Under the pieces are notes generated by a model, which saw only the letters and a program-made list of their open reading frames with translations, was not told where the DNA came from and ran no database searches. Shown here one piece after another: positions 20,328 to 45,105 of a DNA stretch of 64,000 nucleotides (position 1 is its first letter; each line of letters starts with the position of its first letter). The stretch lies in assembly GCA_964016885.1 (NCBI GenBank), contig OZ024748.1:19840001-19904000 (forward strand), written 5' to 3'. The stretch comes from Eledone cirrhosa. Its lineage: Eukaryota. Position numbers and translations under genes: made by a program.

Positions 20328-20500
20328 AGAAGTAGTAACACAATTGTTTCACCTTATGCGGATCTTCAGCTCGGGATCCGCATAAGGTGAATCAATTATT
20401 CTCGGTATGGTGAAGTAACGGTTGTGTTACTACTTCTACCAAACTCGTCCCATGGACTGAGTGCTCTACCACTACGGATATGACCTTCCAGTGTTCTACC
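20328..20500. repeat. Family L fold-back element with a hammerhead split between arms
   Basis: Minus arm CCGAG-CUGAAGA-UCC-GCAUAA-GGU-GAAA-CAAUUG; plus arm supplies ...UU-CUCGG. Confidence 0.6.
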
Positions 20501-20564
20501 TCGCTCTCTCTCTCTCTCTCTCTCTCTCTCTCAATATATATATATATATATATATATAGTAATA

Positions 20565-20750
20565 AGTGTTTCTACTTTTGGCACAAGGCCAGCAATTACC
20601 CAGTACATTACTGGTACTTTATTTTATCGACCCCGTAAGGATGAAAGGCAAAGTTAACCTCAGCGGGATTTGAACTCAGATCGTAAAGGGACGTAACTAC
20701 GCTGGAAAGCAAGTCTGACCCTCTACCAATACTGCCAATTCCCCGCCCTT
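20565..20750 (-). mobile_element. tRNA-derived Nin/Deu-like SINE
   Basis: Near-complete copy of the family seen at 50260-50455. Confidence 0.8.
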
Positions 20751-21389
20751 ATAGTAATTATATTTTCGAATCAGCGAGCGAGTTTGAAATTATTATAAAT
20801 GTAAGCTATCGCCGTATTTTGACTAAAGAAATTAAAGAAATTATTTAGCCTTATAGTGGGGTTAATATATATATATATATATATATATATATATATATAT
20901 ATATATATATATATATATATAGGTTAATATAAATCAATATATTTGATAAACACAAATATCCTCATATTTATGTTTGTATTGTAAATGACCAAGTTAGCTA
21001 GATAGAAATATACTAATAATAATATTACAGTTTGCCTATCATGACTTAAGATAATACATCATAAATCAACAAAAACAAATTGTATTGGCAATGGCCGTAG
21101 TGCTTGGACAAATTTAAATTTCAAAATCAAACCTGTTCCGTAGACAGGTTTAAACCTTAAAATCCAAATATGTTTCGAATAATGAAAACGTGGAAGAAAA
21201 TACCGCATTTTGATCTCCTCAGCAAGCACTATAAAAATTGGTATGTTCCACTTCAAAATATTTAGGAAGACTGTTTAGCGCACGAGGTAACCTCATGCGG
21301 TTACCCAGTGTCTAGAAATAACAGCCGTTTGTATGGGGCTAAATTCAGCTCAACGAAGGAGCAGTGATTTTATTTATATATATATATAT

Positions 21390-22132
21390 GGAAAGTTATA
21401 TTTAAATTGTTGGGTTACAACTAGTAAATATTTATAACTGATATAAAAGCACTCAACAAGTATTTGGAGTATATTTACGATATTAAATAAATGGAAACTA
21501 TATTTATAAAACCATATTTATTTCATTATATATATTTCAGGGATATCATATTAACAATATGTTATGCCTTCTTCAGACAAAATACAATATAGACAGTTTT
21601 ATAAATAAATAGATTTGACATACCGTTCAACATCGACTTGTATTTGAAAAGTTGATTTGGCAGTGAAAAATTGTAAACAGAAAGAAAGAAAGAAAGAAAG
21701 AAAGAAGGAAAGAAAGAAAGAAAACGAAGAAAAAGAAGAAATGCATGCAACTAAATAGAGAGATGGAAAGATAGATAAAGAGAAGAACTTCATGTAAAGA
21801 AACAGTTTCTCTGTTTCTTTACATGAAGTTCTTCTCTTTATCTATCTTTCCATCTCTCTATTTAGTTGCATGCATTTCTTCTTTTTCTTCGTTTTCTTTC
21901 TTTCTTTCCTTCTTTCTTTCTTTCTTTCTGTTTACAATTTTTCACTGCCAAATCAACTTTTGAAATACAAGTCGATGTTGAACGGTATGTCAAATCTATT
22001 TATTTATAAAACTGTCTATATTGTATTTTGTCTGAAGAAGGCATAACATATTGTTAATATGATATCCCTGAAATATATATAATGAAATAAATATGGTTTT
22101 ATAAATATAGTTTCCATTTATTTAATATCGTA
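21390..22132. repeat. Family A fold-back (arms ~330 bp) with HHRs at 21519-21584 (-) and 22024-22089 (+)
   Basis: Centre GAAACAG-TTTCT-CTGTTTC ~21805; CUGAAGA core in both arms; left arm ~85 bp longer. Confidence 0.9.
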
Positions 22133-23313
22133 TATATATATATATATATATATAATACCTTTTTTCTGTAATACATCTGATAATTTACATTGAGCTTTTT
22201 TTTTACTGGTAATTGGGTGGTACAACATATTTATAATTATATATATAACTCATATATAAGTTTAAATATTATTATTAGTATATATATATATGTGTATGTA
22301 TATATATATATATATATATATATATATATATATATATATATATATATATATATATATGTAATTATATATATGTATATACATATATGTATATGTATGTATA
22401 TATATATGTATATACATATATGTATACACATATATATATACATACATATATATATATGTATACACATATATAAAATTACATATATATATATAGATTCATA
22501 TATATATATATATATATATATATATATATATATATATATACATATATATATATATATTATATTATATCGTATATTTACTCCAAATACTTGTCGAGTGCTT
22601 TATATCAGTTATAAAAATATTTGCTTGTTGTATCCCAACAATTTAAATAGAACTTTTGCATATATATATATATATATATATATATATATATATATATATA
22701 GAGAGAGAGAGAGAGAGAGAGAGAGAGAGAGGGGGGAGAGAGAGAGAGGGAGGAGAAAGAAAGAAAAATGAAGAGTAGAATCCCTTCCGGTCCTCCATTA
22801 ATATAATGACCACGTGATGTCATCCATTGTAACAAGCCCCAGTTGTCTTCCATAAACATGAAGGAGGACGTGTTGTATGGGCAAAGTAAAATGGTGGAAG
22901 GGAAAATGTCTTTAGTAAAGAAACTACCCAAGTTCAGACAGCCAATAACATGTCATAGACATTTAACAGATGAATAAGTCGTAGAGACGCCATCGCGAAA
23001 CTCTTGTGTAAATGTATAGTAGTAGGTATATATATATATATTATATATATATATATATATATATATATATATATATATATATATATATATATATATATAT
23101 ATATATATATATATATGCATATATATATATATATATGTATATATATATATATATATATATATATATATGCATATTTATATAGTATATATATAATATATAT
23201 ATATATATATGTGTGTGTGATAAAATAAATGCAAAGACAAAATATACTAAAATATATAAATATATATATACACAATAATTAATAAATGGAAACTATATTT
23301 ATAAAACCATAAT

Positions 23314-41526: not shown

Positions 41527-41654
41527 ATATATATATATATATATATATATATATATACACACCTCAATTCATATACATATTTATGCAATATCTATTGATA
41601 TTTCCTAATTTCAGACACGTTGCAATCTAGCATAGACAAGGCGCTTGAGAGAGC

Positions 41655-42630
41655 CTACACACAGAGACTGACAAATGCATACATATATACATATATATAT
41701 ACATATATACATACATATATACATACATATATATATATATATATATACATACACACATACATATATACATACATAGATATATACATATACACATACATAT
41801 ATATATATATAAATATATATATATATATATATATATATATACATACACAGATACACATAAACATACATATTTACATACATACATATATACATACATACAT
41901 ACATACATATATACATATATGCATGCGTACATATATACATACATATATATACATACATATATATATTTTTATGCATATATACATACATGCATACATGCAT
42001 ACATATATATATACATATATTCATATATATACATACACACATATGTACTTAAACACATTTACAAACAAACATACATACATACATCCATATATACATACAT
42101 ACGTATATACATACACATACACACACATACATATATACATATATGCAAACATACATCACACAAACATACAAACATACATACATACATGCATATAAATACC
42201 ATACATACGTATATATATATACACACGCACACACATACATACATATATACAAACATGCAAACATACATCACACAAACATACAAACATACATATATGCATA
42301 TATAACATACATACGTATATACATACACACGCACATACATACATACATATATACATACATACAAACATACATCACACAAACATACAAACATACATACATA
42401 CATGCATATATATACCATACATACGTATATATATACACACGCACACACATACATATATACATACATGCAAACATACATCACACAAACATACAAACATACA
42501 TACATACATGCATATATATACCATACATACGTATATATATACACACGCACATACATACATATATACATACATGCAAACATACATCACACAAACATGCATT
42601 CATACATACATACATGCATATATACACATA
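41655..42630. repeat. (TACA/CA) complex satellite with ~106 bp higher-order unit
   Basis: Repeated GCAAACATACATCACACAAACATACAAAC. Confidence 0.8.
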
Positions 42631-43487
42631 TATATATATATATATATATATATATATATATATATATATATATATATATATATGGTGGCTGCCAATTCGT
42701 TTTCGAGTACGGCCACTACTTTATATCCATGTAGGAGAACTCCTACCGATGCGCTGAACGAGTGTGACATTTTAGTCCAGCCAGCGACTTGAAAACTCTG
42801 GTACAAACACTACACTTGTGACAATTATTGTCACATAGTGCTGGGCCCATGGCACCATGTGACGACAAGTGCAGAGAGATCTCCAGATATAAAGCAATGT
42901 CTGTGCCGTGAAGCTTTTATAGAGAGCAAAGGCTCTGCACAAAGCCAGTCCCACTCTCTTAACCAAGATGATATTTACCAAAAAGAAGAACAAGTGAACA
43001 TCATTTGATACCATCAGGGTTGCAGGTGTTATATCAGAGTTTTCCTTCCCCTAGGATTCTGCCTTGACAAAGGCTAAGGGGTCATCTCTCCTGGTGATTT
43101 TGGATGGCCATTGACTCTTAAGAGCTCCTTTGCACTTTGACAGGTTTTGTTTTTAGTCCTGCAGGATGTCCAAAGTCACCCTCCTCACCAAGAAACCTTG
43201 GTGGGGTTGCCAGTTTAGTCGCCAACGACCCGACCATGAGACAGGTTGTACTGGGATACATGTTACCAGTAGCACCAACTGGTGACCTCATATACATACA
43301 TACATACATACATACATACATACATACATACATACATACATACATACATACATACATACATACATACATACATACATATATATACATATATATTCTTTGC
43401 CAGCGAACGTTTCCACGAACCAGAGTATCGTCTTCCTGTCTTCCTCCGGTTGCAAGGTTTTTTGAAATATCCAGTTCTGCGTTTACA

Positions 43488-44068
43488 GATTGACTTTGTT
43501 AGTTTCAGAAGATCCCGTTAAGGGTGAAAGCAGCGATTCTTTGCTTAAACTTTAATCTGTTATTTTAATAAATATTCATATATATATATACGATATTAAA
43601 TAAATGGAAACTATATTTATAAAACCATATTTATTTCATTATATATATTTCAGGGATATCATATTAACAATATGCTATGCCTTCCTCAGACAAAATACAA
43701 TATAGACAGTTTTATAGATAAATAGATTTGACATACCGTTCAACATCGACTTGTATTTGAAAAGTTGATTTGGCAGATTTGCCAAATCAACTTTTCAAAT
43801 ACAAGTCGATGTTGAACGGTATGTCAAATCTATTTATCTATAAAACTGTCTATATTGTATTTTGTCTGAGGAAGGCATAGCATATTGTTAATATGATATC
43901 CCTGAAATATATATAATGAAATAAATATGGTTTTATAAATATAGTTTCCATTTATTTAATATCGTATATATATATATGAATATTTATTAAAATAACAGAT
44001 TAAAGTTTAAGCAAAGAATCGCTGCTTTCACCCTTAACGGGATCTTCTGAAACTAACAAAGTCAATCT
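43488..44068. repeat. Composite palindrome: family C HHR + (TA)n + family A HHR in each arm
   Basis: HHRs 43501-43551 (+), 43632-43697 (-), 43858-43923 (+), 44004-44054 (-); centre TTGGCAGATTTGCCAA. Confidence 0.9.
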
Positions 44069-45105
44069 TGTATAACATACATATATATATATATATATTA
44101 TATATATATTATATATATATATATATATACATTTATATATATATATATATATATATATATATATATATATACATCTATATATATATATATATATATATAT
44201 ATAAATGTATATATATATATATATATATATATATATAAATGTATATATATATATATATATAATATATATATATAATATATATATATATATATATATATAT
44301 ATATATATATATATATATATATATATATATATATATATATATGTATGTTATACAAACACTTTATAGACATATAGACATATATACAAAAGTTCTATTTAAA
44401 TTATTGGGATACAACAAGCAAATGTTTTTATAACTGATATAAAGCACTCGACAAGTATTTGGAGTAGATATACGATATTAACAAATGGAAACTATATTTA
44501 TAAAACCATATTTATTTCATTATACATATTTCAAGGATACCAAGATAAATTATGGTATGCCTTCATCAGACAAAATACAATATATACCAGTTTATGAAGG
44601 TACACCATAATTTATCTTGGTATCCTTGAAATATGTATAATGAAATAAATATGGTTTTATAAATATAGTTTCCATTTGTTAATATCGTATATCTACTCCA
44701 AATACTTGTCGAGTGCTTTATATCAGTTATAAAAATATTTGCTTGTTGTATCCCAACAATTTAAATAGAACTTTTGTATATATGTCTATATGTCTATATG
44801 TCTATAAAGTGTTTGTATAACATACATATATATATATATATATATATATATATATATATTATATATATATATTATATATATATATATATATATACATTTA
44901 TATATATATATATATATATATATATATATATATATATATATATATATATATATACATTTATATATATATATATATATATATATATATATATATATAAATG
45001 TATATATATATATATATATAATATATATATAATATATATATAATATATATATATATATATATGTATGTTATACAAACACTTTATAGACATATAGACATAT
45101 ATACA
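44069..45105. repeat. Family A fold-back with mirrored microsatellite flanks; HHR 44513-44577 (-)
   Basis: 44340-44560 vs 44595-44830 inverted; right arm starts inside the core (ATGAAGG). Confidence 0.85.

Follow-up and report, generated by a model that had tools for sequence, protein, structure and literature searches.

In endonuclease-positive Penelope-like elements (EN+ PLEs), the reverse transcriptase (RT) is followed by a GIY-YIG endonuclease and the pLTR carries a hammerhead ribozyme (HHR); their insertion units are described as heavily 5'-truncated, flanked by an adjacent inverted 5'-truncated copy, provided with an optional tail at one end and targeted to (TA)n (PMC8557442; PMC2377424, Fig. 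1C legend). The role of the hammerhead in these elements has been called unclear (PMC8557442), and for PAc (Poseidon, Anolis) its cleavage is dispensable in vitro (PMC11167929). Had arm junctions peaked at the ribozyme, the genome itself would have testified directly to a non-catalytic role; a search of titles and abstract openings among non-subscription papers found no paper mapping PLE fold points against HHR coordinates.

The window analysed here, the whole stretch of 64,000 nucleotides from Eledone cirrhosa (OZ024748.1, positions 19,840,001 to 19,904,000), contains units that share with EN+ PLEs the heavy 5' truncation, the adjacent inverted copy, the optional tail, the (TA)n targets and the HHR in the pLTR, and whose ORF remnants suggest an RT followed by GIY-YIG; they differ from those described in being mostly 200-700 nt long and without ORF, and in a family A tail of ~90 nt instead of 30-40 nt (PMC8557442; PMC2377424). 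Type I HHRs in short non-coding units derived from PLEs are also a feature of non-LTR retrozymes, which are described as head-to-tail tandem arrays (10.64898/2026.07.22.740005), whereas the units of the window are head-to-head pairs or single arms; no HHR-bearing tandem array, the arrangement expected of retrozymes, is present in the TRF output at a score of at least 200. The only tandem-like signals are a partial direct repeat in family H and one joint in RAD reads that goes back 178.

Penelope-like insertion units in the window

HHRs were called with our own motif descriptor for the canonical type I core, which finds 21 motifs in the window and none in each of 20 shuffles; the hammerhead was absent among the matches listed from an Rfam scan (150 of 452). 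These listed matches are of microsatellite type and lie below the gathering score. Offsets are counted from C3 of CUGANGA, taken as 0, and the features are as follows (strand +, - or, where none is assigned, a point).

135..372, -: family A arm, inverted and tailed, 5' end -52; meets the long copy 375..3152 head-to-head
375..3152, +: long family A copy; degenerate PLE ORF, 3' UTR and pLTR with HHR (C3 3056)
2965..2998, +: initiator-like motif with its A at 2968 (-88), followed 27 nt later by a DPE-like motif
8110..9015, -: donor segment, comprising the HHR of family O (C3 9001) with 3' flank, and a fold-back of family P
11221..13575,.: complex rearrangement; P tail of 57 nt, filler of 6 nt, then a mirror of 8980-8110 beginning at O +21 (11284), next a mirror of 10020-11164, and lastly 10967-11132 copied in direct orientation
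19499..20308, -: family G source copy; GIY-YIG ORF remnant 20043-20309; HHR C3 19651, with U4C; 5' end ~-657
20329..20505,.: family L fold-back; junction 20374/20375 (-5/+5); C3 20369 on minus
21100..21365, -: family S single arm; long-stem-II HHR (C3 21222); reaches ~-145
21392..22131,.: family A (A4) fold-back with a 5-nt loop at its junction 21805/21811 (~-230); each arm has an initiator-like A at -88
23738..24250,.: family F fold-back; junction ~23930 (-108/-123)
25410..25618,.: second family M fold-back, absent from the earlier note on this DNA; junction ~25457 (~+78/+85), a little 3' of the +71 cut
26007..26304,.: family A (A3) inverted pair; 26177, filler, 26190 (+16/-18)
26916..27062, +: family G single arm; begins at +2, adjoining (TA)n
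33651..34781,.: family H fold-back; junction 34205-34229 (~-294/-320)
35465..36442,.: family H2 inverted pair; ~-235; M fold-back sits inside
35880..36290,.: family M fold-back; 36153/36154 (-7/+15); HHR on minus, with C3 36146 and stem I edge 36151
39846..40030,.: family A (A2) minus arm and inverted tail piece
40060..40617,.: family F fold-back; junction 40402/40403 (-118), without loop
41125..41523,.: family A (A3) fold-back; 41366/41373 (-54/-63); 3-bp microhomology, 6-nt loop
43487..44068,.: family A (A4) fold-back; -87/-86; mirror includes ~96 nt of flanking DNA beyond the element
44343..44825,.: family A (A3) fold-back; 44593/44594 (-24/+3); tail on both arms, flank mirrored
61005..61261,.: family H2 arm and inverted upstream segment (~-215 to -130); arm end ~-23; twin-priming-like

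The broken ORF of the long family A copy (375-1585) retains the RT as a C-terminal fragment only, starting just before GLYRDD and followed by a YVGST-type segment, together with a GIY-YIG-type endonuclease remnant at 1040-1585. This copy has 4134 relatives at E<=0.001; among six long relatives scanned, one gave weak RVT_1 and GIY-YIG Pfam matches below the cut-off, and the family A pieces of the window gave no Pfam match, while the family G remnant matches Pfam GIY-YIG at E=2e-4 (22.1 bits, below the cut-off of 22.6). No relative was found among 328 candidates of a word-index protein search, and metagenome pattern scans for families A and P gave 0 matches. As in EN+ PLEs, a type I (minimal) HHR is found in the pLTR downstream of the ORF: the ORF remnants, with RT and GIY-YIG, are followed on their 3' side, without interruption, by the HHR cores at 3056 and 19651; both of these HHRs are mutated in core or stem. 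The adjacent inverted 5'-truncated copy is seen at 135-372 against 375-3152 and at 13 more inverted junctions of the census given below, and the optional tail in the two classes of family A 3' ends, +97 (without tail) and ~+190 (with tail). We judge these structures to be Penelope-like insertion units of the ordinary, published kind, in which uncleaved RNA is the template and a 5'-truncated copy stands inverted beside the first.

Arm junctions and the hammerhead

The earlier note, made from the sequence alone, had pointed to six junctions at which an arm turns or begins within the ribozyme; its coordinates are accurate to within 2 nt, and all six break points do lie 5' of the predicted cleavage site. 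Family L indeed turns at the edge of stem I, the minus arm running to 20374 (-5) and the plus arm from 20375 (+5, G8), with a stem I of 5 bp whose 3' strand is visible in the plus arm. For family M, whose HHR has a long stem II, a perfect 5-bp stem I and a cut at +71, the edge was correctly placed at 36151 (-5), but the minus arm ends 2 nt away from it, at 36153 (-7), and the plus arm begins at 36154 (+15). In the family A pair at 26177/26190 the minus arm does reach the edge of loop II (+16), and the plus arm, which the note has starting at stem I, begins at -18, a point 10 nt 5' of the 8-bp stem I that still falls within a longer helix, extended by RNAfold to ~-27; a 12-nt filler (26178-26189) repeating loop II separates the two arms. 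The second arm at 44593/44594 (-24 and +3) begins inside CUGAUGA and the G copy begins in the core (26916, +2), both in agreement with the note, while the O mirror begins at 11284 (+21), inside the HHR but 2 nt 5' of loop II, within which it had been located.

That folds coincide with the ribozyme beyond chance is not confirmed by a census of 20 hand-mapped junction events in HHR-bearing families. An end inside the HHR occurs in six events only; the remaining 14 (family A: 372, 21808, 41370, 43778, 39990, 23440; F: 23930, 40402; H: 34205-34229; H2: 35856, 61182; M: 25457; G: 20308; R: 4490) have ends that either lie between -23 and -2681 or follow closely after the cut, and junction positions overall span +85 to -2681. 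The stop rate of the longer arm is lower inside the HHR (3 in 1017 nt) than in the 130 nt upstream (11 in 1145 nt), with RR 0.31, or 0.78 when the HHR edge is widened by 3 nt; in family A alone, 2 of 15 arm ends lie inside. The rate peaks over the 30 nt that adjoin stem I on its 5' side (5/365, against 6/780 in the next 100 nt; small numbers). Some stops inside the HHR are to be expected by chance, because at least a third of a template of 190-280 nt consists of it. The census leaves out, for want of an HHR coordinate, the P junctions 4265, 8250, 8321-8377, 8441, 10043 and 27556 with duplicates, and 9708 and 14724; the 20 events likewise exclude family S, the tail-only piece 22558-22660, the A-like motif 23470-23580 and the O donor arm, whose 5' end has no assigned position. 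The omission of HHR-less folds biases the count toward the earlier claim.

Depth over family A and a likely start at -88

Beyond the window the comparison concerns family A only: public data, in which palindromes are likely under-sequenced, were mapped on one family A arm for 4 of 10 runs, two of them contigs (X1 and X2, from one sample) and two RAD reads (X8 and X9, covering few loci). Relative to the +2..+10 bin, contig depth is 0.89-1.16 over +19 to -52, 0.14 at -84 and ~0.01 past -98; RAD minus-mate depth is 0.86-1.03 over +10 to -34, 0.38-0.41 at -84, 0.10 at -102 and 0.02-0.03 past -116. RAD plus-mate depth was excluded, being dominated by restriction-site pile-ups; in X8, loose ends number 10,070 at 3076 and 4,288 at 3020. 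No depth step is present at the stem I edge or core, either in the contigs (+19 to -34) or in the RAD reads (+10 to -34), and coverage is nearly gone at -88 to -105. An RT pause or template switch at these sites of family A, as the earlier note had suggested for the folded HHR, is not supported in view of the flat depth, and the expected junction peak over the flanking rate is missing at core and stem I edge both from family A depth and from the window's junctions; the family A data point against a non-catalytic stopping role. Between +50 and +10 total depth drops ~2.3-fold in the contigs and 5-fold in the RAD data. The restriction site and subfamily divergence account for part of this drop, and stops in the stem II/III half (+20 to +50), which are confounded with them, may contribute. 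Among the 18 ends of 9 of the 10 strand-switch joints in reads (the 3'-end joint 3145/3156 being omitted), 4 fall in the HHR, against 6.9 expected if uniform on -90..+75, and 3 fall at -88 (2968).

The likely transcription start of the family A pLTR, judged from its motifs, is -88. Both A1 and A4, subfamilies poorly alignable with each other, carry an initiator-like A at -88 and, 27 nt downstream of it, a DPE-like 5-mer, with a shuffle chance of 0.002 each (post hoc); the A4 fold at 43778 lies at -87, beside the motif. The boundary at -88, drawn on evidence that does not include 518 rows of loose ends, could instead mark the point beyond which most copies no longer resemble the reference. In family F, two copies with 87% identity have their folds at -123/-108 and at -118; near the ends of F, H2, G, S or O no initiator/DPE-like pair was found, and the motif pair of H, at -256, does not match the H fold. 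In D. virilis Penelope an internal Inr/DPE promoter is described 5' of the end of the intron, at a distance of 46+75 nt (PMC2377424); that intron end corresponds to the helix I 5' end (PMC4209133). That short pLTR transcripts set the size of the palindromic stubs, and that fold points may serve for mapping PLE promoters, are testable ideas.

Template and joining of the arms

The reading that we favour, with a probability of about 0.7, is that uncleaved PLE RNA is copied through the HHR, with scattered stops and an upper limit at the pLTR start, and that the arms then form by snap-back or joining. An endonuclease-positive PLE enzyme would copy the pLTR RNA straight through the hammerhead; cDNA synthesis would halt at scattered points, the likely upper limit in family A being -88, and the free cDNA end would snap back on itself, through 0-3 nt of microhomology or a short templated filler, or join a second cDNA. 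We infer the RNA template, the -88 start and this mode of snap-back; eight junctions with loops of 0-6 nt speak for snap-back. That the template was not simply the 3' cleavage product, as the earlier note had argued, is supported. PAc likewise uses an uncleaved RNA template, with no reads ending at the HHR cut in the account given, has two internal RT start sites defining the tail and inserts into AT-rich targets; its HHR overlaps the ORF start, unlike here (PMC11167929). Snap-back of cDNA, whose 3' end primes on the cDNA before target joining, is a described junction class for the R2 protein, especially after full-length cDNA (PMC11371274); there it is a minor class and an HDV-like ribozyme sets the RNA 5' end by cleavage, whereas in the present units inverted arms are the rule and the HHR has an internal position (PMC11371274; PMC11331408). 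Flanking DNA is mirrored at three loci (43487-44068, 44343-44825, 12258-13406), a clue to the origin of the long-known inverted copies. At four junctions (372, 26187, 41370, 20374) the tail is present only on the 5'-shorter arm, for which a single snap-back is insufficient without later tail loss; a rule that the tail is always on the shorter arm was dropped (4 for, 2 against, 23930 and 36153).

It is possible, if only tentatively to be entertained, that twin priming, instead of intramolecular snap-back, produced most of the pairs: two cDNAs, each begun on a different target strand at one of the two RT start sites, would have been joined by their 3' ends. The strongly asymmetric junctions 372, 61182, 39990 and 11284 and the restriction of the tail to the shorter arm in four cases would be so explained, and PAc, a predicted dimer, has two start sites and acts on both strands, nicking and extending them (PMC11167929); neither near-symmetric junctions with 0-6 nt loops at many offsets nor mirrored target flank, however, are expected from two independent stops. 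Twin priming concerns the joining of arms and fits with no role of the HHR.

It is unlikely that a folded or protein-bound HHR partly blocks the RT or makes it switch templates, whether in certain families or within the stem II/III half. The six HHR junctions are real, with no distance between arm end and stem I edge in family L and one of 2 nt in M, and four longer-arm ends lie <=3 nt from extended stem I edges, placed by eye, against 0.74 expected (P=0.005, post hoc); yet the result varies with the edge chosen, the proximal edge giving two ends (P=0.17). The filler 26178-26189 looks as if synthesis had stuttered at loop II, read joints occur once at -8 and three times at +26 to +40, and the PAc HHR is protein-assisted in vitro, though its core mutants leave insertion size unchanged (PMC11167929). 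The lower stop rate inside the HHR and the flat depth over core and stem I edge, together with a reference-allele contig depth of 0.57-0.74 million from +31 to +4, argue against it; a special stopping role is unsupported because most copies read through and end further upstream. A pause due to RNA structure would moreover be expected at the 3' strand of a helix, where RT first meets it, not at the 5' edge. The narrower version, in which a protein-bound uncleaved HHR of families L, M, G and O (one or two events each) or of the family A stem II/III half releases the cDNA end and triggers the inverted arm, is likewise unlikely; if true, a roadblock would give poorly cleaving ribozymes a structural job, setting insert size.

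Later DNA-level template switches or hairpin-capped breaks are an improbable source of some junctions, the O mirror above all, in spite of the fact that 11284 opens a 940-nt mirror of DNA 2.3 kb away within a multi-switch rearrangement and that L1-induced breaks yield inverted duplications by self-annealing (10.1101/2024.12.14.628481): the mirrored segment stops exactly at the P-family tail end, like an RT start on read-through RNA, and most other arms stop at element-specific 3' ends. Self-priming of the second strand by stem II or stem I of the cDNA, suggested in the earlier note, is very improbable, although snap-back as such is well supported and two junctions adjoin loop II (26177, 11284), for the arm after 26177 begins at -18, the partner at 11284 is the tail of another family, and self-priming fails on the helix register, in which none of 4 window mirror junctions (partner-offset sums -2, -21, 0 and 8, against ~43-48 predicted for A, ~25-30 for L and ~64-71 for M) and none of 10 read joints lies. 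An assembly artefact is ruled out by the arms differing 0.3-7% at symmetric folds, and is also contradicted by strand-switch joints in independent runs.

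Junctions and the hammerhead

Among 20 junction events mapped by hand in the hammerhead-bearing families only (Penelope-like, PLE, repeats; O entered as +20), a junction being the point where two head-to-head arms meet or the 5' end of a single arm, 6 have an end inside the type I hammerhead ribozyme (HHR). They are identical to the six of the earlier note, whose coordinates proved correct on re-mapping (offsets are counted from C3 of CUGANGA as 0, minus being upstream).

Junctions inside the hammerhead: window position; offset; predicted cut
L junction, 20374/20375; -5/+5; +30
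M junction, 36153/36154 (stem I edge 36151); -7/+15; +71
A junction, 26177/26190; +16/-18; +48
A junction, 44593/44594; -24/+3; +48
O junction, 11284; +21; +54
G junction, 26916; +2; +28

From these it had been proposed that fold and truncation points coincide with the HHR, acting as a pause or template-switch site for the reverse transcriptase (RT). Stop rates, counted at the end of the longer arm (taken as the cDNA stop) and divided by the number of nucleotides at risk, reveal no enrichment in the HHR beyond chance: 3 stops fall inside it (1017 nt at risk), 5 in the first 30 nt upstream (365 nt), 6 in the adjoining 100 nt (780 nt), 5 farther upstream than those 130 nt (3401 nt) and 1 downstream of the cut (1540 nt), giving an RR of 0.31 for the HHR versus the 130 nt upstream, or of 0.78 when 3 nt are added at the edge. 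In favour of the proposal, 4 stops lie at most 3 nt from the extended stem I edge, where 0.74 would be expected (P=0.005), in a test window picked after the data were seen, and 2 at the proximal edge (P=0.17); this edge is movable, since RNAfold lengthens the stem I helices to about -27 in A and about -29 in H2.

Beyond the window, one family A arm (window:2896-3156) was used as reference, at an 80% likeness threshold, for two public contig sets from one sample (X1, X2) and two public RAD read sets (X8, X9), with depth scaled to the +2..+10 bin. Contig depth, which is not copy number, stays at 0.89-1.16 between +19 and -52, and minus-mate RAD depth, covering few loci, at 0.86-1.03 between +10 and -34; all four sets lack a step at the family A core or stem I edge, and depth changes by just 4-12% over the cut site. 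Enrichment at the family A core and stem I edge is not supported. Depth is greater downstream of +20, but in that region other subfamilies contribute 27-34% of contig depth at +31/+35 versus 2-4% at -9/-2, and at the single site 3074, 748 and 802 mates end beside reads starting at a restriction-site-like motif. Reference-allele depth is steady (0.57-0.74 million) between +31 and +4; family A stops may nevertheless occur within +20..+50. Of 18 ends of nine strand-switch joints, which come without orientation, 4 fall within the HHR, where a uniform spread would give 6.9, and another 3 at -88; palindromes are likely under-represented in the sequencing.

The second suggestion of the earlier note, self-priming of the second arm by stem II of the cDNA, is rejected, as is priming by stem I: offset sums of about 43-48 (A), 25-30 (L) and 64-71 (M) are predicted, those seen (-2, -21, 0 and 8) are out of register, and 0/10 strand-switch read joints are in helix register. 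At O and G, the junction lacks a same-family mirror arm. As all six junctions map 5' of the predicted cut, more than the 3' cleavage product must have been copied; uncleaved RNA as template is confirmed, but was known before, and agrees with published findings, namely that in PAc, the Anolis Poseidon PLE studied in vitro, HHR mutants left insertion unaltered and zero RNA reads started or ended at the HHR cut (PMC11167929), and that a single minimal HHR does not cleave (PMC4209133).

Upstream ends

Contig depth past -52 falls to 0.65, 0.44, 0.30, 0.14 (at -84), 0.035 and then about 0.01; minus-mate RAD depth sinks to 0.38-0.41 at -84, then 0.25-0.27, 0.10 and 0.02-0.07. An initiator-like motif has its A at position 2968 (-88), and a DPE-like 5-mer follows at +27 from that base, one base shorter than the textbook spacing of +28; both were named against the usual consensus sequences.

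Initiator-like plus DPE-like pairs (offsets -88, +27)
A1, 2965-2998
A4, about 21941-21974

A4 aligns poorly to A1 upstream of about -55, yet carries the pair at identical offsets (shuffle chance 0.002 each, post hoc), and the A4 fold at 43778 sits at -87. In family F, two copies have their folds at -123/-108 and -118, with no such pair at the fold points. The internal promoter of D. virilis Penelope is of the Inr/DPE type, and a 75-nt intron begins 46 nt past its start (PMC2377424) and terminates at helix I (PMC4209133), so that transcription would begin about 120 nt before the HHR. The main template would be short transcripts of the Penelope-type terminal repeat (pLTR), a few longer read-through RNAs presumably yielding the ends at -230, -300, -657 and -2681. 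Alternatively, -88 may mark no more than the loss of similarity between the reference and most copies.

Upstream of its -88 pair, A1 has a pyrimidine tract and a heptamer resembling a branch point (2800-2946); in M, a sense-strand AG immediately before stem I (36152-36153) resembles the 3' splice site position of D. virilis Penelope. Family P is HHR-less in the window (4210-4320, 8187-8497, 9978-10100, 27436-27556); several of its arms share a TAGT start (8250, 8441, 10043), which may mark either a start or a cleavage site.

Joining of the arms

Loops of 0-6 nt (8250, 9708, 21808, 25457, 34205, 40402, 41370, 43778), 3 bp of microhomology at 41370 and mirrors that carry on into the neighbouring sequence at 43487-44068 (for about 96 nt), 44343-44825 and 12258-13406 point to snap-back synthesis continuing beyond the priming site, a junction class described for the R2 protein (PMC11371274). 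Asymmetric junctions (372, 39990, 61182, 11284) and tails confined, in some cases, to the shorter arm point instead to two cDNAs or later trimming; both routes are probably in operation. The O mirror is part of a multi-switch rearrangement and may represent no RT stop whatever; the local rearrangement at 11221-13575 has at least three switches, with about 2 kb duplicated inverted and P-family tails as bounds. At 20342-20430, a deletion between two short TTGT repeats has removed stem I 3' from the L minus arm; the plus arm retains it.

Elements and other features

The window is AT-rich, dense in (TA)n and (CA)n tracts, and holds numerous short head-to-head palindromes on self-comparison; a type I hammerhead descriptor finds 21 motifs, versus 0 in each of 20 shuffles. 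Retroelement coding remnants lie upstream of the HHR in two families:

A, C3 3056: HHR closing a broken ORF that opens just before a GLYRDD motif
G, C3 19651: HHR downstream of a GIY-YIG remnant (Pfam score slightly below cut-off)

The segment that terminates the family A ORF is endonuclease-like and has 4134 relatives. The head-to-head structures are further members of a known element class: an inverted 5'-truncated copy with optional tail is standard in Penelope-like elements (PMC8557442), and opposite-strand HHR pairs spaced 100-700 bp are on record (PMC4209133).

Other features
4462: R, 47-nt stem II region (M, likewise long, 51 nt)
15513-16280 (-): second PLE-like ORF remnant, similar to 536-1036 by eye; no Pfam match
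21100-21365 (-): family S HHR, 93-nt stem II region, 9-bp stem I
26704-26795: short MITE-like element, imperfect terminal inverted repeats, flanked by TA tracts
27704-33499: 5-nt unit array, 5.8 kb, 1168 copies
33651-34781: family H partial direct repeat, pLTR-like, period about 466 nt (34229-34315 versus 34695-34781)
56169-57150: degenerate LINE-type RT (Pfam RVT_1, E=7.5e-08)
3394-3634, 18888-19294, 20560-20763, 55381-55613, 58393-59292: dispersed SINE-like family, presumably resembling an octopus SINE
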